From a virus (taxonomy: Duplodnaviria > Caudoviricetes): a stretch of 54,497 nucleotides of DNA. Of this stretch, positions 1,604 to 54,497 are shown piece by piece. Location of the stretch: the IMG/VR virus record IMGVR_UViG_3300046171_000026, positions 1-54,497 of that record. The stretch is one strand, 5' to 3'. Both the position numbers and the translations under genes were made by a program. Position 1 is the stretch's first letter, and every line of letters starts with the position of its first letter. The notes below the pieces were generated by a model that was not told the origin of the DNA, made no database searches, and saw nothing but the letters and a program-made list of their open reading frames with translations.

Positions 1604-1862
1604 ACGAAAAGCTAGAACTATTCCTTTTGGATACAAACTAGCAGAAGACACAGATTATATTGAACCAATAGAATCTGAATTAGAAGCTTTAGAAGAAGCA
1701 AAGAAATTTTTAAAAACATGTTCATACCGAGAGGTAGCTATTTGGCTAACAAGAAAAACAGGAAGGTACATATCATATGTCGGACTTAGAAAAAGAGTCG
1801 CAAGAGATACCGCTTCCAAAACCAAAGAAGAAAGTAAAAACCAAAGCCAAGCAGTCAGCTAA
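1536..1862 (+). CDS. Small DNA-binding/HTH-like protein (true start probably downstream, e.g. TTG at 1581)
   Basis: IPFGY motif followed by helix-turn-helix-like SYREVAIWL...ISYVGLRKR. Confidence 0.55.
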   Translation: MVCLYYQQKTKWKNQLLLQSKIKRKARTIPFGYKLAEDTDYIEPIESELEALEEAKKFLKTCSYREVAIWLTRKTGRYISYVGLRKRVARDTASKTKEESKNQSQAVS

Positions 1863-3411
1863 ACAAGCTTTAGCTAGAACACGTAAAAAAGTTGCAAAGG
1901 CAGAACAATCTCTACGTTCAGCCAAGGCTCATGCAAAAAATGTCAAGGATAAATTGTTAACCATTGACAAAGTATTGGATGGTAAAGAACAGCAACTTAT
2001 AACCCAAGACGTAATAGAAGATGTTCCAGAAAATATTCAAGAACATCTAGCTGCACAGAATATAATCTTTAAACCTAATGAAGGTCCACAAAGAGATTTC
2101 CTAGCAGCCTCAGAACGAGAAGTGTTTTACGGTGGAGCAAGAGGTGGTGGTAAATCATATGCCATGTTAATAGATCCTCTACGATACTGTCATAAAGAAC
2201 ATCATCGTTGTCTATTACTCAGAAGAACAATGCCTGAGTTAAGAGATTTGATTAATCATTCTCAAAGATTATACTCAAGAGCATTTCCAGGAGCAAAATG
2301 GAGAGAGCAAGAAAAAGAGTGGAGATTCCCGTCAGGAGCAAAGATAGAGTTCGGGTACGCAGAGAACATGACAGATGTTTTACGTTACCAAGGGCAATCA
2401 TACACATGGATAGGAATAGACGAACTTCCACAATATCCTTCGCCAGATATATATAATTTTCTAAGATCGTCACTTAGATCAGTTGATCCAAGTATACCAG
2501 TATACATGAGGGCTACAGGTAACCCAGGTAACGTTGGATCACAGTGGGTTAAAGAAATGTTTGTAGATCCTATAGATCCAAACACAGCTTTTAACATAGA
2601 GATTTCTACACCCTCAGGTATAAAATATATAACAAGAAGATTTATACCAGCTAAGTTACAAGATAATCCGTACCTTATGCAGACTGATGATTACTATGCA
2701 ATGTTATCATCACTACCAGAAGTACAAAGAAAACAATTTTTAAATGGAGACTGGGATGCATTTTCTAATGCAGCATTCTCAGAATTTGACAGAGATGTAC
2801 ATGTTGTCGAACCTTTTGAGATACCTAGAGGCTGGCAGAGATTTCGTGCTGCTGACTGGGGTTATTCTTCTCCTGCTTGTTGCTTATGGTTTGCTATTGA
2901 CTACGATAATAATCTATGGGTTTATAGAGAACTGTATACTCAAAAGATTACGGCAGATGTATTCGCAAGAAAAGTCATAGACCTAGAGCACGGAGAATAT
3001 ATACGTTACGGGGTCTTAGACGCTAGTACATGGGCAAGAAGAGGTGATGTGGGTCCAAGCATTGCAGAGACAATGATTCAAGCTGGATGCCGTTGGAGAC
3101 CTTCTGATAGAACTCCAAGAAGTAGAATTAGTGGAAAGTTAGAAATCCACAAAAGATTAAAGGTTGAAGATAATGAACCTGGTATTCGTATATTCTCTAG
3201 TTGTAGAAATTTACTAAGAACATTTCCTACACTACCAATAGATGATAGTAATCCAGAAGACATTAATACACACGTAGAAGATCACGCATATGATGCATTA
3301 AGATACGGATGTATGAGTAGACCAATGCATACAAGTTATGCAAACAAAGCATTTGGTAATAGTAACAGAACAACTAATTTTGTCCCCTCAGATAAAATAT
3401 TTGGATATTAA
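1777..3411 (+). CDS. terL: Terminase large subunit
   Basis: Walker A GGARGGGKS, Walker B IGIDELPQ, coupling motif ATGNPG, RNase H-like nuclease motifs AADWG and EDHAYDALRY. Confidence 0.96.
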   Translation: MSDLEKESQEIPLPKPKKKVKTKAKQSAKQALARTRKKVAKAEQSLRSAKAHAKNVKDKLLTIDKVLDGKEQQLITQDVIEDVPENIQEHLAAQNIIFKPNEGPQRDFLAASEREVFYGGARGGGKSYAMLIDPLRYCHKEHHRCLLLRRTMPELRDLINHSQRLYSRAFPGAKWREQEKEWRFPSGAKIEFGYAENMTDVLRYQGQSYTWIGIDELPQYPSPDIYNFLRSSLRSVDPSIPVYMRATGNPGNVGSQWVKEMFVDPIDPNTAFNIEISTPSGIKYITRRFIPAKLQDNPYLMQTDDYYAMLSSLPEVQRKQFLNGDWDAFSNAAFSEFDRDVHVVEPFEIPRGWQRFRAADWGYSSPACCLWFAIDYDNNLWVYRELYTQKITADVFARKVIDLEHGEYIRYGVLDASTWARRGDVGPSIAETMIQAGCRWRPSDRTPRSRISGKLEIHKRLKVEDNEPGIRIFSSCRNLLRTFPTLPIDDSNPEDINTHVEDHAYDALRYGCMSRPMHTSYANKAFGNSNRTTNFVPSDKIFGY

Positions 3412-8685: not shown

Positions 8686-9633
8686 ATGGAAGAAGAAAAA
8701 AAAGTAACTGAAGTTTCAAATGAAACAGAAGTTAAAAAAGATGATAAACTATTTAAGAAGCCTGAAGGCAAAGCTATGTATCAAAAGCAAAGAGATGACG
8801 CTGATGATGCAGAAGTTGAAGCATTCGCAAAAGGTGAATTAGGTAAATATCATCAAGAGAAAGCAGACACAGCAACCGTTCAAGAGGACACTGAAACATC
8901 TGAAGAAATTGCAAGCTCCGATGGCGAAGCTACTCCTTCAACTGAACGCCCTGAAAATGCAGAAGATCGTGTTTTTAAAAAACGTTATGACGATTTGAAG
9001 AAACACTATGATTCTACTTTATCAAAGCACAAAGATGAGGTTAGAACTTTAAGAACGCAATTGGAAACATCTACAAAAGAGTTTGTTCCACCTAAGTCTA
9101 AAGATGAACTTGAGGCTTGGAGAAAAGAGTATCCTGATGTTTATGATATGGTTGAAACCATAGCTATGACAAAAGCTGATACTAGAGCAAAAGAGATTGA
9201 GGAGAAATACCAAAATCTACAAGCTCAACAGGAACAGATAAGCAAAGAAAAAGCTGAAGTAGAATTGTTAAAGATGCATCCTGACTTTAGTGAGATTCGT
9301 CAAAAAGATGAGTTTCATCAATGGGCTAGTAAACAAGATCCAGTTATTCAAAGTTGGTTGTATGAAAATACATCTAATGCACAACTAGCTGGAAGAGCTA
9401 TTGACCTTTATAAAATGGACAATGGTACTAGTAAATTAACTAAAAAACAGGAAACATCTATTAAAAAAGAAGCAGCTAAAGCTGTGACTAAAACTACTAA
9501 AGCAACAGAGACAGAAATTCCTACAAAGAAAATCTGGTCTAACTCTGAAATTGCTAGAATGAATCCAAGAACGTTTGCGAAGTACGAAGCCGAAATTGAT
9601 GAAGCTATTAGAGAAGGTAGAGTCCAACCTTAA
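8686..9633 (+). CDS. Capsid scaffolding protein
   Basis: Acidic coiled-coil directly upstream of the capsid gene; FKKRYDDLKKHY motif and C-terminal EIDEAIREGRV. Confidence 0.82.
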   Translation: MEEEKKVTEVSNETEVKKDDKLFKKPEGKAMYQKQRDDADDAEVEAFAKGELGKYHQEKADTATVQEDTETSEEIASSDGEATPSTERPENAEDRVFKKRYDDLKKHYDSTLSKHKDEVRTLRTQLETSTKEFVPPKSKDELEAWRKEYPDVYDMVETIAMTKADTRAKEIEEKYQNLQAQQEQISKEKAEVELLKMHPDFSEIRQKDEFHQWASKQDPVIQSWLYENTSNAQLAGRAIDLYKMDNGTSKLTKKQETSIKKEAAKAVTKTTKATETEIPTKKIWSNSEIARMNPRTFAKYEAEIDEAIREGRVQP

Positions 9634-14304: not shown

Positions 14305-16095
14305 ATGGGAGCAACATACACACGACAAAGTTCATCAGCTATTGTTGATGGTGCAGTCATTGAAGCGTCAGATATAAATGCAGAATTTGATCAAATTCTT
14401 GCAGCATTCGCTGTAACTTCAGGGCACACTCACGATGGCACAACAGCAGAAGGTGGACCAATTACAAAATTATTAGGCACTGCAATCACTATTGGTGATG
14501 GTACTGCAGGGACAGATATTGCTGTAACTTTTGATGGAGAGACAGGTGATGGTGTTCTTACATGGATGGAAGATGAAGACTACTTTCAATTCTCAGATGA
14601 TTTATTATTAACAACTACAGAAAAATTACAGTTTAGAGATACTGCAATATATATTAATTCATCAGCAGATGGCCAATTAGATTTAGTTGCAGATACAGAA
14701 ATACAAATAGCAGCTACTACAATAGACATTAATGGTGCTGTTGCTTTAAATGGTGCTATTACAGGTGCTACTAATATAACTCTTTCAGGTGAATTAGATG
14801 CTGCAACATTAGATATCTCAGGTGATGCTGATATAGATGGGACATTAGAAACTGATGCTTTATCTATAAATGGTACAACAGTTACTTCAACAGCAACAGA
14901 ATTAAATTTAGTTGATGGTATTACAGCAGGAACTGTAAGTGCATCTAAAGCAGTAATAGTAGATTCTAATAAAGATTTAACTGGACTTAGAAATTTAACT
15001 ATATCAGGAGATCTTACAGTATCTGGTGATGATATTACTATGGGTACAAATACTGCAGGTAATATTTTAGTTGCAGATGGTACAAACTTTAATTCAGTTG
15101 CAGTAGGTGGTTTATCAGAAATATCTACAGTTGCTAATGATGATGTATTCTTAGCGGTTGATACTTCAGGTGGTGGACTTAAAAAAATTACAAGATCAGC
15201 AGTTGTATCAGGACTTGCTACATCAAGTGCTATATCAAATGTATCAGAAGATAGCACACCTCAATTAGGTGGTAATCTTGATTTAAATGGTTCAGATATT
15301 GTAACCACTTCAAATGCAGATTTAGAATTAGCACCAAATGGTACAGGTCATGTTACTGTTAAAGGTAATACAAATGCAGGTGCTATACAATTTAATTGTG
15401 AATCTAATTCACATGGACAGATATTAAAATCCCAACCACATTCTGCAGGTGTTACAAATGTTATGTTATTGCCTGCTGGTGCTGATTCAACTTTAGTATC
15501 TTTGGTATCTACAGATACTTTAACAAACAAAACTTTAACATCGCCTAAAATAAATGAGAATGTAGTAGTAACTTCTACTGCAACAGAATTAAATTTATTA
15601 GATGGTATTACTGCTGGTACAGTATCAGCTTCATTAGCAGTTATAGCTGATTCAAATAAAGATATATCAGGATTTAGAAATGTAACTTTAACAGGTGAAT
15701 TAGATGCAGGATCACTAGATATTAGTGGAGATGCAGATATTGATGGTACATTAGAAGCAGATGCTATTACAATTAATGGTACAACTTTAGCAGAAACTAT
15801 ATCAGATACTGTTGGAGCAATGGTAGGATCAAATACTGAGACTGGTATTGCTGTAACTTATGATGATTCAGATAATACATTAGATTTTGTAATATCAGCT
15901 TTACCATTAAGTAGTATAGATATAGATGGTGGTACAGATATAGGTGCAGATTTAACAACATCAGATTTAATTGTAGTAGATGATGGTGCTGGTGGAACTA
16001 ATAGAAAAGCTGCTTTATCTAGAGTAGTAACTTTAATGACAGCTCAAGGATTTAGTACAGATGATCCTACAGCTCTAGCCATCGCACTTGGATAA
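14305..16095 (+). CDS. Tail fibre protein (proximal) with internal repeats
   Basis: N-terminal YTRQ...INAEFD...GHTHDG anchor; repeated LSGELDA..LDISGDADIDGTLE and TATELN..DGITAGTVSAS blocks. Confidence 0.8.
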   Translation: MGATYTRQSSSAIVDGAVIEASDINAEFDQILAAFAVTSGHTHDGTTAEGGPITKLLGTAITIGDGTAGTDIAVTFDGETGDGVLTWMEDEDYFQFSDDLLLTTTEKLQFRDTAIYINSSADGQLDLVADTEIQIAATTIDINGAVALNGAITGATNITLSGELDAATLDISGDADIDGTLETDALSINGTTVTSTATELNLVDGITAGTVSASKAVIVDSNKDLTGLRNLTISGDLTVSGDDITMGTNTAGNILVADGTNFNSVAVGGLSEISTVANDDVFLAVDTSGGGLKKITRSAVVSGLATSSAISNVSEDSTPQLGGNLDLNGSDIVTTSNADLELAPNGTGHVTVKGNTNAGAIQFNCESNSHGQILKSQPHSAGVTNVMLLPAGADSTLVSLVSTDTLTNKTLTSPKINENVVVTSTATELNLLDGITAGTVSASLAVIADSNKDISGFRNVTLTGELDAGSLDISGDADIDGTLEADAITINGTTLAETISDTVGAMVGSNTETGIAVTYDDSDNTLDFVISALPLSSIDIDGGTDIGADLTTSDLIVVDDGAGGTNRKAALSRVVTLMTAQGFSTDDPTALAIALG

Positions 16096-16157: not shown

Positions 16158-16523
16158 ATGGCAAACACGTTTAAGGTAGTAAATTTCGCAGCAGAACCTG
16201 CTAGTGCTGGCACTGCATACACCATGTATACGGTGGCAGGGTCAACTACAACAGTTGTTCTGGGCTTAATACTTACTAACATCCATACTACTGCAGTTAC
16301 TGCAGAGGTAGAGCTTCATAGTGATACAGCAAATCGTGCTGTAGCTAATAATACTGCAAATGGAATATCTATTCTTGCAAAAGATGTAAGTATTCCAGCA
16401 GGTACATCACTTGAGCTTTTATCTGGAGGAAAGATTGTTATGGAAGCAACCGATGTATTAAAAATCGATTGTTCTGTAGCAGATAAGCTTTCAGGTACGT
16501 TAAGCATAATGGAGATCACATAA
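16158..16523 (+). CDS. Small tail-associated beta-sandwich protein
   Basis: MANTFK... 121 aa; follows the fibre gene. Confidence 0.7.
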   Translation: MANTFKVVNFAAEPASAGTAYTMYTVAGSTTTVVLGLILTNIHTTAVTAEVELHSDTANRAVANNTANGISILAKDVSIPAGTSLELLSGGKIVMEATDVLKIDCSVADKLSGTLSIMEIT

Positions 16524-30290: not shown

Positions 30291-30683
30291 ATGGCATTCC
30301 CAATTTTATCAGCACTAAAATTAGCTGTAAATGCTGGCACTCATATCTATAAAAAGAAACAAGAAACTAAGATGCTTATGGCTGATGCTCAAGCCACGCA
30401 GGCTGCGAAGATGGCTCGTGGGGAAAGCGAATACCAAGGCAAGCTGCTTGAGGCTAGGCAATCGGACTGGAAAGACGAGTTCGTTTTGGTCGTTCTAACG
30501 CTGCCAATTTTGGTGATTGCGTATGGGGTCTTCTCGGATGATCCTGGTGCAGCTTCTAAAATAAAAGAGTTTTTCGAGCAGTTTCAACAGCTGCCGAGCT
30601 GGTTTACCAATTTATGGATACTTGTCGTGGCTAGTATTTATGGTATAAAAGGCACTCAAATATTTAAGGGTGGCAAAAAATAA
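30291..30683 (+). CDS. Holin (3TM GTA-holin-like)
   Basis: SDWKDEF motif followed by TM segments, LP.W and ASIYGIK; basic C-terminus. Confidence 0.7.
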   Translation: MAFPILSALKLAVNAGTHIYKKKQETKMLMADAQATQAAKMARGESEYQGKLLEARQSDWKDEFVLVVLTLPILVIAYGVFSDDPGAASKIKEFFEQFQQLPSWFTNLWILVVASIYGIKGTQIFKGGKK

Positions 30684-38922: not shown

Positions 38923-39806
38923 CTATTCAAAAGTTTCCTCTTTCTTAGGATTGTTTACTTCAGTGTACCAAACCCACTTAGGGTTCTTGCCTTGCGATTG
39001 TTGTTGTGGTAACAATTGCAATTTACTTCCCCAACAAGGAAGCTTGTATGGGCAAAATGTACAAGCCATGCCCAAAACTTTATTACCTGTTTTCTTAGTA
39101 CGGAATGTTTCTTCTATATCTTTAAAGCATCTTTTAAAAGGTACTTTATTTTCAATAGCTGTTATGTTTTCTTCTGCACTAGCTAACGCTTTAACTCTGT
39201 ATTCGTTATCATCTATAGGAGTTTCACATACTGTCCACTCACCTGTAGATTTATTAATTACAATCCATCCACCAAAAGGCATCTTCTCACTTTCACTATA
39301 AAGATATCCTTGAGGTACATATCCAAACGCATCGTCTTTTGCAACCTCTTCAAATCCACTTCCAAATTTTTATCAAATGAATATGGTGATGCACTTTTAA
39401 TATCCCACACTTTCTCATCAATCTTAACATCAAGCCTGCCTTCAATTTCTGATTCTTTAAATTTAAGTTTAACTTTTTTCTGTTCATCTTTTACTTCTAC
39501 CCCTGCTGATTTCATTACAAATATAGCCAATGCCTCAACAAGATCACCAAAAGTATTTCTCATCTTAACATTGTATGGCTGACCTTCACCCTTTACATTC
39601 TTTGCCTCCATCTGCAATTGACATAATGGTCTACCTATACTTGACATTCTTGGTTTAAAGCCCTCTCGTCTTTGCTCAGAGAACTGTTTGCGTAAGGCAC
39701 TTTTACATGCCTCACCAAACTCTTCTACTAGTGTATCAGATATATCAATAGATTCTTTATTGCATTTATCTAAATACGTTTGAACTTTTAGAAGTATATC
39801 GTTCAT
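38923..39806 (-). CDS. PD-(D/E)XK (Cas4-like) exonuclease, split by a frameshift near 39366-39371
   Basis: RMSSIGRP.CQL, G..D..ID...WDIKS and C-terminal C.FCPYK..CW; adding one A to the A-run restores FDKKFGSGFEEVAKDDAFGYVPQGYLY..MPFGGW. Confidence 0.8.
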
Positions 39807-48303: not shown

Positions 48304-48332
48304 ATCTTAACACATAAAGTCTGGTGTGTCAA
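48304..48332 (-). promoter_or_regulatory. sigma70-type promoter embedded in the end of the upstream CDS
   Basis: TTGACA-17 nt-TAAGAT with extended -10 TG. Confidence 0.6.
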
Positions 48333-48789
48333 CTAAAGTGTACTTAGCAAATCGTTTTTTCTCACCTACATAATAGTTCTTGTATGATTGTATGTAGTCA
48401 TCACACTTGTATTCATCTGGCATACATAGTGGTGGTATAAGAAATGTTTTGTATTCAAACTTATCTTTTATCTTTTCGTTTAAGCATATAAGATTGTTTA
48501 GTATTCTACCTGTCTTGTGAATTTTGTTATGGTATCTGTGTCTGTATTGATTAAGTAAATGACCTAGTAAATCCATTGACCACATATAATTACCAAGTGA
48601 ATCTCCTACCCATATTGTCATTGGGTGTTTGGGGTATGCAGGTTTGTATAACTGTTCATCAATACCACAATGTCTTTGGTATGCAGTTGATAACATCTGT
48701 CCTGTTTCTAATATCATTTTTACTACATGCTTATCACAATGATAGCTAGCACATATCTCTGGATCTTTGTGTAAGTGAAATATATTCAT
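48307..48789 (-). CDS. Pyrimidine-dimer DNA glycosylase-like protein (T4 endonuclease V superfamily)
   Basis: MNIF.L..DP..CA..HCDKHVVKMILE.GQMLSTA...HP...W signature. Confidence 0.78.
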   Translation of the reverse strand: MNIFHLHKDPEICASYHCDKHVVKMILETGQMLSTAYQRHCGIDEQLYKPAYPKHPMTIWVGDSLGNYMWSMDLLGHLLNQYRHRYHNKIHKTGRILNNLICLNEKIKDKFEYKTFLIPPLCMPDEYKCDDYIQSYKNYYVGEKKRFAKYTLVDTPDFMC

Positions 48790-52379: not shown

Positions 52380-52418
52380 AAAAAAAAACGAGAGGGCAAT
52401 TTTAATTTTGCCCCCTCG
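52380..52418 (-). terminator. Rho-independent terminator
   Basis: CGAGGGGGCAA...TTGCCCTCTCG plus T9. Confidence 0.85.
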
Positions 52419-52675
52419 CAATTTTGTAAGTTGGTATTTTTAACTTAAAGACCTAGTGATTTAGCTAATAAATGTAGCAATAAATAGCCAATAGTTATTG
52501 ACGAAACCATTACAAATATTAATTTCATTTTTTTATCTTCCTCACTTTCATAAATGACTTATGTAATTCCTGTTGTTTAAATTTTTCTACCTCTATTCCT
52601 CTCAATTTTATTATTGAAACTATTAGAATAATAAAACCAATTACAATTAGAGATAAGCCCCCATATAAAAGAGTA

Positions 52676-52873
52676 TTAACTGTCATATATATTCTTATGA
52701 ATTGATTTTATCTTATCAGTTGCAATAGGTGTAATGCTCTCAAGTTGTTTATCAGTTAAACTTTTAACAGTATTACTTTCTATTGTATCAATAACCAATT
52801 TTGAACTAGCGATCTTATTACTAATTTCTAATTGTTTATTAATTTTTTCTAATACCTTAATTAATTGTTTCAT
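52676..52873 (-). CDS. First gene of the early arm, hypothetical
   Basis: GAGG RBS; 65 aa. Confidence 0.6.
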   Translation of the reverse strand: MKQLIKVLEKINKQLEISNKIASSKLVIDTIESNTVKSLTDKQLESITPIATDKIKSIHKNIYDS

Positions 52874-52952
52874 TTATTTACCTCTATTTATTAAGTTTAT
52901 TTATTATGTATAATAATTATATATAAAAGTTATATCTAATTAATATAACTAT

Positions 52953-52981
52953 ATATTATATTTAATTAATATATATGTCAA
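52953..52981 (-). promoter_or_regulatory. sigma70-type promoter at the head of the early arm
   Basis: TTGACA-17 nt-TAATAT in a very AT-rich context. Confidence 0.5.
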
Positions 52982-53032
52982 ATAGATATAAATAATATAT
53001 ATAATAGATAGATATAAATAATATATATAATA
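52982..53032. repeat. Two tandem 25-nt AT-rich repeats
   Basis: ATAGATATAAATAATATATATAATA at 52982-53006 and 53008-53032. Confidence 0.8.
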
Positions 53033-53156
53033 AATAGATATATATATTATATAAATATACTGCCTTATTCTTGCCATATTATAGACAAAGTTATGCCTTA
53101 ATATTATAGTATGGTAAATATATGACAAAGTGTTGCATAAATATCACACCTTTAGA

Positions 53157-53172
53157 TGTTTCACGTGAAACA
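53157..53172. promoter_or_regulatory. parS: parS centromere-like site (ParB/Spo0J binding consensus)
   Basis: TGTTTCACGTGAAACA, an exact match to the bacterial chromosomal parS consensus; intergenic. Confidence 0.85.
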
Positions 53173-53178
53173 TTACAG

Positions 53179-53195
53179 ATTAGAATGATTCTAAT
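53179..53195. promoter_or_regulatory. Palindromic operator resembling the Irr ICE box
   Basis: ATTAGAA-TGA-TTCTAAT vs ICE consensus TTTAGAA-N3-TTCTAAA. Confidence 0.45.
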
Positions 53196-53387
53196 TAGCA
53201 ATCAATTACAGGTTGTATTAGGGGGGGGGTATTAAAAAAGCTAATAAAATAAGGGTTAATTTAACAATTCAAAATTTTGAATTAAATAAATTGACGTTAG
53301 TTATTAAAAATGCAATAAAGGTATATGAATATTTTAAAAATAAATAAAAATTTATTGGGTATTCATAATAATAAAAAGGAAAATAAA

Positions 53388-54176
53388 ATGAAAAATGAAA
53401 CTAATGTTAAATTTGATAGACCAATAAAACTATCAGCTGAGCAGACAAAACAAGTTACTCAAGTTGATGATATTTTGACAGCTGAAAATTCTGTTGGAAA
53501 TCAAAAAATAGTTTTAGTTAATATGATTACTGAAACTATCAACTCTAAGAAAGTTAAAATGGAATATACTGAAATCAATAAAACTACAGGCGTTGAGAAA
53601 GTAATTTCATTTGATAGCTTAAACCAAATAACTAATAAAGATGTTAAGGGGTTAGCTGATACTTACAAAAAATGGTTGGGGGTTGATAAGTTAAAATCAT
53701 GGGCTTCAACTACTGACAATGGTAAAGAAAGAATGAGAATTTTAAAAGAGTCTTTATGGGTTGCTATTGTTACAGCTAAAACTGAAGTAATCACAAAAAA
53801 TAAAAAGGGTGAGCAATTTACAGGAAATAAAAATAGTGAAATTTTTGTTGATGGTGACTTTGCTAAAAACTACTCAGATAATGATAAGGGGTTAGATATT
53901 GTTAGCATGAAATTTTCACAGCTAAAAAGAGCAACCCAAAATTATATTGCTGATAAGAAAACACCAATTAATTCAACTGAGGTTTCAGCTAGAAATAATG
54001 GTTTTCAAACTCTAATGAAAAAATCAGTTTTAGCGATTGACGAAGCTAAAGAAAAAATTGTTTTGGGGGAAAATAACCCAAATGATTTAAACGCTGTTAA
54101 AAGTGTTTTCATTAAAGCCCAACAATACATTGAGGAACATAACAGGGTTCAAGCTAGTTTAAAAAAAGCTAGTTAA
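53388..54176 (+). CDS. Lone divergent terminal gene, Lys-rich hypothetical protein
   Basis: AAGGA RBS before ATG 53388 (MKNETNV...); the ORF-track start at 53325 is an alternative. Confidence 0.8.
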   Translation: MKNETNVKFDRPIKLSAEQTKQVTQVDDILTAENSVGNQKIVLVNMITETINSKKVKMEYTEINKTTGVEKVISFDSLNQITNKDVKGLADTYKKWLGVDKLKSWASTTDNGKERMRILKESLWVAIVTAKTEVITKNKKGEQFTGNKNSEIFVDGDFAKNYSDNDKGLDIVSMKFSQLKRATQNYIADKKTPINSTEVSARNNGFQTLMKKSVLAIDEAKEKIVLGENNPNDLNAVKSVFIKAQQYIEEHNRVQASLKKAS

Positions 54177-54193
54177 TAAAAGCTAACTAAATT

Positions 54194-54227
54194 AAAACCC
54201 CAGACTAATCATCTGGGGTTTTTTTTT
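54194..54227 (+). terminator. Rho-independent terminator (possibly bidirectional)
   Basis: AAAA-CCCCAGA-loop-TCTGGGG-T9. Confidence 0.88.
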
Positions 54228-54351
54228 GGAATTTTTAAAAGTGTTATATTATAACATAACAAATAGAGCTCTATTTAAACTAGGTATAACAATTATATAT
54301 AATAATTATATTTAATTTCTATACATGGTTTACTTAGGGGAATTATAGCTA

Positions 54352-54497
54352 CAAAAATTCAAGGGCTATCCTCAGTAAAACCCCGAGAACCACCCAGAAA
54401 AAACACTTAAAAAAATTACAAGGAATAAATCAAGGTACACACTAGGGAAATAAACTAGGGGATATGCGAGTGACCACCCCCATACCTACCTATATAC
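54352..54497. repeat. Direct terminal repeat, right copy
   Basis: Matches 1-146. Confidence 0.93.

Follow-up and report, generated by a model that had tools for sequence, protein, structure and literature searches.

The stretch of DNA analysed here (the window, meaning the whole stretch at its full length) is a 54,497-bp virus record of IMG/VR with 33% G+C, IMGVR_UViG_3300046171_000026, and it is an HMO-2011-type pelagiphage close to HTVC033P. Its control region carries an exact copy of the bacterial chromosomal partition site, parS, and this site is one half of a composite whose other half is a palindrome resembling the Irr box (ICE). The reading that we favour, with a probability of about 55%, is that the parS is a selected, cis-acting loading site for the ParB protein of the host, an accessory element placed at the divergence of the two gene arms of the phage. 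An earlier note on this DNA, made from the sequence alone, had pointed out the parS; the partner palindrome was absent from it. The elements concerned are the following.

53157 to 53172, no strand assigned: parS 16-mer TGTTTCACGTGAAACA, exact; it is also exact in 25 of 25 metagenome contigs of phage group A/A2 (see below)
53156 to 53173: 18-bp perfect palindrome ATGTTTCACGTGAAACAT, which encloses the 16-mer
53179 to 53195, no strand assigned: 17-bp palindrome ATTAGAATGATTCTAAT, 15/17 to the Irr-box/ICE consensus, 6 nt to the right of parS

The 16-mer of the window matches the chromosomal-type parS consensus TGTTNCACGTGAAACA at 16/16 positions, and a literature text search finds that string in use as parS in published papers. 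It is the only copy with one mismatch or none in the 54,497-bp record; two look-alikes with three mismatches, at 8712 and 41710, both lie within open reading frames (ORFs). The site is found in a 451-nt gap, 52874-53324, between leftward replication genes and rightward packaging genes, which confirms what the earlier note had said of an 18-bp palindrome with an exact 16-mer in the main intergenic control region. The note had also called a chance occurrence very unlikely. For a single window this holds, the expectation for the exact 16-mer being 0.9-1.9e-5 per window by base or dinucleotide composition; over 250,000 windows of this size, however, about 2 exact chance matches are expected, and a lone exact match is insufficient to exclude chance at the scale of such a scan. 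Chance is excluded because parS recurs with a fixed partner motif in many unrelated contigs.

The recurrence in phages was followed in IMG/VR with a pattern made of GTTTCAYGTGAAAC (the 14-nt parS core), 1-18 nt, and then TAGAATNATTCTA. It matches 22 contigs of 31-57% G+C that fall into six flank groups, with the exact 16-mer in 14 of the 22 and a 15/16 form in eight:

Group A, 31-33% G+C, L250, L259 and L338: exact in L250 and L338, one central change in L259
Group A2, 33% G+C, L337 and L340: exact in L340, one central change in L337
Group B, about 50% G+C, 4 contigs: exact; two copies 147 bp apart in the 3 contigs that are uncut at the site
Group C, about 50% G+C, 3 contigs: exact; two copies 173 bp apart
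Group D, 54-57% G+C, 4 contigs: exact
Group E, 33-37% G+C, 6 contigs: 15/16

Groups A and A2 are HMO-2011-type phages, and groups B-E are HTVC023P-type, with TerL 55-63% and PolA 47-55% identical to those of HTVC027P/HTVC023P. Between parS and palindrome there are 1-15 nt in all phage groups; measured from the 16-mer to the TAGAAT core, the distance is 3-15 nt. In groups B and D, as in the chromosomal copies described below, only 1-2 nt separate the 16-mer from the 17-mer, an abutment which suggests that two proteins could touch or exclude each other there. In groups A, B, C and E the module stands where leftward genes give way to rightward ones; in group D its place is 43 nt upstream of TerL. 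No protein family is common to group A and groups B-E within 3.5 kb of the module. Four longer records (G001-G004), of 26-44 kb, have no more in common with the window than a weakly similar family-A polymerase (22-26% identical), part of a tail protein and a 130-aa protein, and a six-frame search of these four records gave no ParB_N match.

A stricter pattern with the exact 14-nt core was applied to metagenome contigs, some of which are the IMG/VR records above. The 73 matching contigs were sorted by a flank script; the group assignments are heuristic and most of the carriers are fragments:

Group A/A2, 25-34% G+C: 25 contigs, exact 16-mer in 25
Group E: 7 contigs, exact 16-mer in 0
B/C-like: 5 contigs, exact 16-mer in 5
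Group D: 3 contigs, exact 16-mer in 3
Other, 49-60% G+C: 33 contigs, exact 16-mer in 23

In the group-A/A2 contigs, all 25 of them, positions 1 and 16 are T and A although the pattern leaves both free, while the spacer is 7-9 nt long and takes nine forms. The phage carriers of the pair thus span two unrelated marine groups and 25-59% G+C. The low-GC IMG/VR contigs with an exact parS were also considered as pieces of SAR11 chromosome, a candidate that was rejected, since all are phages. Two of the low-GC contigs with an exact parS, L096 (two copies) and L057 (one copy), are phi29-like, with matches to the Phi29 capsid, connector and Gp16 ATPase, which agrees with what has been published on phi29.

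The 33 contigs classed as other (49-60% G+C) are not phage. Housekeeping ORFs, among them GidA, GidB, ribosomal protein S1, Der, HemB and Aat, flank the pair in seven of eight loci examined, and the pair forms part of an intergenic repeat about 150 nt long (loci including L416, L423, L428, L431, L434, L441, L447, L451 and L458). In L431, L447 and L458, parS and palindrome alternate in short arrays, that of L431 lying directly upstream of gidA. The palindrome in these chromosomal loci is of the perfect ICE type. Over 181 kb, 36 of 37 parS sites (one mismatch or none) have the palindrome within 45 nt, a count in which only the extra copies are independent, the loci having been selected for one pair. 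Proteins named Methylocella sp. or Beijerinckiaceae share 77-86% identity with the GidA of L431; by sequence, at least L431 is from the Hyphomicrobiales, Alphaproteobacteria, and we infer that the remaining chromosomal contigs are related to it because the same repeat of about 150 nt is present. The intergenic gaps with the chromosomal pair include every orientation of the neighbouring genes, one example lying directly behind the stop codon of hemB. Among bacterial chromosomes, it is for these Beijerinckiaceae-like contigs only that the analysis demonstrates a canonical parS.

The ICE (Irr box) consensus is given as TTTAGAA-N3-TTCTAAA, i.e. TTTRGAAYNRTTCYAAA (PMC1698941), and the two positions at which the palindrome of the window departs from it are the outermost ones. 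Among the longer records the match is 17/17 in G002, 16/17 in G001 and G004 and 15/17 in G003; of the phage groups, B and C reach 16/17 and E reaches 17/17. The 13-nt core of the window palindrome is kept in HTVC033P and in many contigs of differing G+C. Pelagibacter ubique is reported to encode both Fur and Irr (PMC2864753; PMC1698941), and the latter source gives only one or two predicted ICE sites for it. All the contexts found are alphaproteobacterial or phages of such hosts. Unlike the known ICEs, which stand in iron-gene promoters, the palindrome is here joined to parS, in a phage control region and in intergenic repeats of mixed chromosomal surroundings. We also considered TAGAAT as a -10 box with parS at the -35 position; this was rejected, as there is no fitting -35-like hexamer and the spacing is variable.

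Which protein, then, would read the parS? By Pfam (E<=0.01) no ParB, ParA, integrase or repressor was found in 94 of the 99 called ORFs, five ORFs of 37-41 aa lying outside the scan. A six-frame search of the window for ParB_N (PF02195) gave no match at E<=1, and PHROGs gave no ParB, ParA, integrase or repressor in the 41 ORFs scanned out of the 99, those of the early arm and the gap. The record is without the ParA or ParB neighbours of a chromosomal parS, and the window parS is not a chromosomal centromere, its carrier being a phage. ParB orthologues are reported to keep their preference for parS (PMC7383237), and an adjacent ParA-ParB gene pair is reported in at least 120 of 135 complete Pelagibacter genomes (bioRxiv 10.64898/2026.04.03.716430). 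Host ParB would be the simplest binder because the exact site is kept across phages of 25-59% G+C that have no candidate binder in common, and because the pair is also on bacterial chromosomes, where parS is the site of ParB by definition; the parS preference of ParB orthologues and the ParA-ParB pair of Pelagibacter point the same way.

Under the favoured reading, host ParB-CTP would load at parS after infection and spread over the phage DNA, and the unintegrated phage genome would behave as a small chromosome, which ParA would position or segregate and on which SMC might be loaded as well. Where the lytic programme is slow or deferred, the genome would in this way last through divisions of the host. 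Through the adjoining palindrome, loading would depend on a second host protein too, the likeliest being the iron/haem sensor Irr. Put together at its widest, the proposal is that an undescribed two-part alphaproteobacterial element, parS plus an Irr-box-like site, may have been copied by two unrelated marine phage groups, that ParB loading, and chromosome handling with it, may be tied to a second host protein, probably Irr, and that unintegrated genomes may be segregated as replicons while lysis is deferred in iron-starved, slow cells, which would be a non-lysogenic way to persist in the most abundant host-virus pair of the ocean; in this complete form we regard it as rather unlikely.

The conservation of the site was examined in relatives sampled blind to parS, by TerL (the best 80 of 545) and by the first rightward ORF of the window, of 283 aa (5 loci), together 84 distinct loci. 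Among these, a parS with one mismatch or none is present in one contig only (L123, the same as L131). Control regions were compared over a fixed 380 nt upstream of the equivalent of the 283-aa ORF, in 21 regions that include the window and HTVC033P:

parS with one mismatch or none: 2/21 control regions
TAGAATNATTCTA core with one mismatch or none: 7/21 control regions
GTTC-N7-GTTC direct repeat: 12/21 control regions
Exact nonamer of the presumed DnaA box: 3/21 control regions (L177, L191 and L192)

The direct repeat we take to be the alphaproteobacterial LexA box, and the nonamer in the control regions of the relatives to be a DnaA box; the window has neither the GTTC-N7-GTTC repeat nor an exact nonamer. 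The string GTTC-N7-GTTC occurs in papers on the SOS response of Caulobacter. The repeats are found among control regions L139, L142-L144, L169, L173, L177, L181, L188, L191 and L192. Other perfect palindromes centred on CACGTG stand at the same place in some relatives, GTGTCACGTGACAC in L142 (562-577) and L144 (3952-3967), 5 nt past a GTTC-N7-GTTC repeat, and ATTTCACACGTGTGAAAT in L188. Where the window has 41 nt, HTVC033P has a differing segment of 32 nt. As judged from these sequences, the control region of the clade is a mosaic of short exchangeable modules, many of which resemble sites for host proteins. The parS is an accessory element of one sublineage, since HTVC033P is without it and only 2 of 21 syntenic regions carry it; close relatives carry other host-type sites there.

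Several of these results weigh against a role as ParB loading site, or against parts of it. Besides the low share of syntenic regions, no parS with two mismatches or fewer is present in HTVC033P, the closest cultured relative, nor in HTVC023P, 023Pt_psg01 or DSL-LC04. The five cultured HMO-2011-type roseophages have no parS with one mismatch or none and no good ICE match. HTVC027P has only a 15/16 parS, seemingly coding and outside any module. Within the module groups themselves, variants with a changed centre (CATGTG) are found in L259 and L337 and group E keeps 15/16. The window has one parS copy against five in phi29. No low-GC bacterial contig with the pair was found in the metagenome scan, and SAR11 chromosomes may for that reason lack the composite. 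In the window alone, the ICE match with two mismatches is at about the level expected by chance from shuffled sequence; the Irr reading therefore leans on the wider recurrence of the pair, and it is from the consensus match that Irr is named as the most likely binder of the palindrome. As for HTVC027P, its 15/16 parS is at 16412-16427 (L388 1500-1515), in an unannotated stretch that reads as an open frame.

Of what the earlier note had claimed, the failure to recognise parA, parB or integrase is borne out by Pfam, by the six-frame PF02195 search and by PHROGs, and the ParB that it required of the host is at least reported for the likely host group, as adjacent ParA-ParB in the Pelagibacter genomes cited above. 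Its idea that host ParABS is hijacked in cis keeps its footing in that the site is real, intergenic and not due to chance, with no phage ParB found and no common phage binder; it has to be narrowed in that the site is accessory only. Conservation at the syntenic position, on which the note would have had the idea stand or fall, is split, the site being present in 2 of 21 regions and missing from HTVC033P.

The alternative to which we give most weight, though we think it unlikely, is that parS is an operator, at which host ParB and a palindrome-binding protein would gate the divergent early and packaging promoters in the manner of KorB. The short distance of 1-15 nt between parS and palindrome in all phage groups is consistent with this, as is the sigma-70-like promoter (TTGACT, about 17 nt, -10-like hexamer) that groups B, C and E have on the right-hand side of the palindrome; group B, moreover, has its second parS just upstream of a leftward gene. 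A parS placed upstream of a test promoter is reported to let the ParB of P. aeruginosa lower expression, whereas loss of Spo0J in B. subtilis is reported to have made no difference to how genes next to parS are expressed (PMC7022226). Against it, the spacing between parS and palindrome is variable, and so is the distance from palindrome to promoter (C and E, about 14-24 nt; B, about 38 nt; the window, about 95 nt). In 52400-54497 the number of sites from a scan for consensus promoters did not exceed that in shuffled sequence. The chromosomal pair, in gaps of every gene orientation, fits a structural role better. A centromere-like role is favoured over a pure operator role, because the chromosomal pair lies in gaps of any gene orientation, because the nearest promoter-like site may be as close as about 14 nt or as far as about 95 nt, and because the window site adjoins an origin-like A/T tract with iteron-like repeats.

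It is improbable that the site serves a binder other than host ParB, that is, a diverged phage protein or a different host factor reading palindromes centred on CACGTG. The palindromes GTGTCACGTGACAC and ATTTCACACGTGTGAAAT at the same place in relatives would agree with such a reader, most early ORFs are without family assignment, and one of them (48307-48789) matches a PHROG named 'DNA binding protein'; but the full 16-mer, and not the core alone, is kept in phage groups that have no candidate protein in common, the same pair is on bacterial chromosomes, and unrelated proteins would have had to converge on the exact ParB site. Even less probable, in our view, is a site without function, either a chance match or a passenger on a short recombining cassette. 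The expectation of about 2 exact chance matches per 250,000 windows, the closest cultured relatives without the site and the mosaic of interchangeable short modules would all be in keeping with it, whereas the same partner is present in six phage flank groups and on bacterial chromosomes, and the 16-mer stays exact while spacers and flanks change. Finally, we hold it to be very improbable that the palindromes work by way of DNA or RNA structure, whether a cruciform at an origin or leader hairpins, rather than as protein sites. The parS and palindrome of the window do fold as two hairpins (-11.9 kcal/mol, z = -3.0 against shuffles) and adjoin an A/T-rich repeat tract; however, any palindrome folds so, no U-run follows the hairpins, and a structural role would tolerate compensatory changes, yet the exact ParB sequence is kept across 25-59% G+C.

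To our knowledge, borrowing of host ParB by a lytic phage has so far been shown for the Bacillus phage phi29 only. SAR11 and roseobacters do not sporulate, whereas the host of phi29 forms spores and the purpose there is spore entrapment. In phi29, five parS sites are used with host Spo0J, together with Spo0A boxes at promoters, in an alternative infection mode (PMC2731898, describing Meijer et al. 2005). Like phi29, the window is a phage classed as lytic that carries a host-type parS and has no ParB, ParA or integrase of its own. By analogy, the control regions of both may carry sites for sensors of host state, Spo0A boxes in the one and an Irr-box-like palindrome abutting parS in the other, and the sites would serve an alternative, deferred mode of infection, which for the window is a proposal. 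Phi29 differs in having five sites against one in the window (groups B and C have two), and it is a small protein-primed phage unrelated to the window phage. The principle is thus not new; the phi29 precedent was absent from the earlier note.

In chromosomal ParABS systems, parS lies near oriC, ParB-CTP forms a clamp and SMC is loaded. The window has the identical 16-bp site at the divergence of two co-oriented gene arms, beside an A/T-rich stretch, but it is a 54-kb virus with a single site and without parA or parB. The partition cassettes of P1 and N15 encode their own ParA and ParB and use site sequences of their own. They resemble the window in placing a centromere-like site on an extrachromosomal replicon and differ from it in that no parA and parB adjoin the site in the window, where the site is the chromosomal consensus. 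KorB has an operator sequence of its own. It is a ParB-family protein of IncP plasmids reported to repress plasmid promoters (PMC7022226), and as a global repressor near promoters it may serve as the model for the operator alternative; KorB is, however, plasmid-encoded with its own operator, whereas the binder here would be the chromosomal ParB of the host. CtrA sites in phages of Alphaproteobacteria have been proposed to delay lysis, a 'lytic deferment' (PMC9437464). These, too, are sites for a host master regulator on phages of Alphaproteobacteria, although regulator and motif are different and CtrA boxes are not enriched in the window (2 matches against 2.05 expected).

The remaining features of the 451-nt control region and of the genes that border it are:

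52676 to 52873, minus strand: 65-aa ORF, first gene of the leftward early/replication arm
52900 to 53060, no strand assigned: tract of nearly nothing but A/T, with repeats of 13/26-nt period, similar to a DNA-unwinding element
53130 to 53149, plus strand: 20-mer GTGTTGCATAAATATCACAC, a conserved motif 7 nt to the left of parS
53221 to 53229, plus strand: run of nine G, also in relatives L131 and L124
53266 to 53283, no strand assigned: 18-bp A/T-rich perfect palindrome AATTCAAAATTTTGAATT, kept in L131 and partly in L124
53291 to 53296, plus strand: TTGACG, a -35-like hexamer conserved upstream of the rightward ORF in the window, L131 and L144
53325 to 54176, plus strand: 283-aa ORF, first rightward gene

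Two iteron-like repeats lie beside the A/T tract, and this A/T-rich, iteron-bearing stretch looks like an origin. TTGACG we infer to be a promoter element. The 20-mer GTGTTGCATAAATATCACAC has a degenerate second copy 40 nt upstream (direct repeat D2, 53084-53104 against 53124-53144), and it is found exactly in 35 IMG/VR contigs (loci L353-L384) of differing G+C with about 13 unrelated flank contexts. It is often in tandem with degenerate copies, and one phage group has it on the right-hand side of the same Irr-box-like palindrome, at 7 nt. Among its carriers, no protein family occurs in more than 4 of the 13 flank groups, which is weak evidence as the contigs are partial.

About half of the last 14.5 kb of the window aligns at 79% identity to Pelagibacter phage HTVC033P (host HTCC1062), and its gene order agrees with the 53-kb genome of that phage. 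HTVC033P is given as the representative of subgroup IX of the HMO-2011-type phages in a study that assigns Pelagibacter hosts to subgroups VII-IX and describes subgroups IV-X as without identifiable lysogeny genes (PMC9038755). The rightward arm comprises structural and packaging genes to about 36.4 kb, including TerL (1777-3411), an SU10-type portal and adaptor and a capsid protein; the leftward arm runs from 52873 down to about 36.5 kb with replication genes, including a family-A polymerase, a DnaB-like helicase and a primase. A terminator-like hairpin (54194-54222) lies 3' of the 283-aa ORF. A second non-coding stretch with a G+C-richer tail extends across the record ends (54177-54497 and 1-362). 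The record was probably cut there and is nearly of full length, because the matching stretch of HTVC033P is continuous. Rfam and tRNA scans of the window gave no match. Eleven seawater or viral metagenome runs contain at least half of the sampled words of the window, and a scan of genome contigs with TerL gave only a contig of a Winogradskyella metagenome-assembled genome and an Anaerovibrio contig.

Some further observations concern single genes and contig ends. The 130-aa protein (phrog_2524, window 30291-30683) is 87% identical to that of the HTVC023P-type group E contigs, which suggests that unrelated pelagiphages have recently exchanged genes. The ORF 14305-16095 (596 aa) also has a C-terminal piece, of 109 aa, that is 81% identical to group E contigs. 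Of two adjacent leftward ORFs, 39258-39806 matches the front of one Cas4-domain exonuclease PHROG and 38923-39282 its back, and the two could be a split or frameshifted gene. Seven of the 22 IMG/VR module contigs (L339, L337, L335, L333, L250, L259 and L345) end within about 330 nt of the module, which may reflect an assembly break, a hypervariable spot or a genome end.

In summary, what appears to be new is the setting in non-sporulating marine alphaproteobacterial hosts, including the SAR11 phage pool, the use of a single accessory parS site, and the fixed pairing of parS with an Irr-box-like palindrome that is also present on alphaproteobacterial chromosomes. In a literature text search, neither this pairing nor a parS in pelagiphages was found described. 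As a group, pelagiphages rank with the most abundant marine viruses. HTVC033P-like phages are reported to be among the commonest of their group (PMC9038755). The tight pairing hints at an unstudied link between ParB and a second DNA-binding protein, and the chromosomal composite may be worth a separate study. If the favoured reading is true, phages regarded as 'lytic' would gain a route to persistence in slowly dividing, nutrient-limited cells, and models of virus-host dynamics and of pseudolysogeny in the ocean would change with it.

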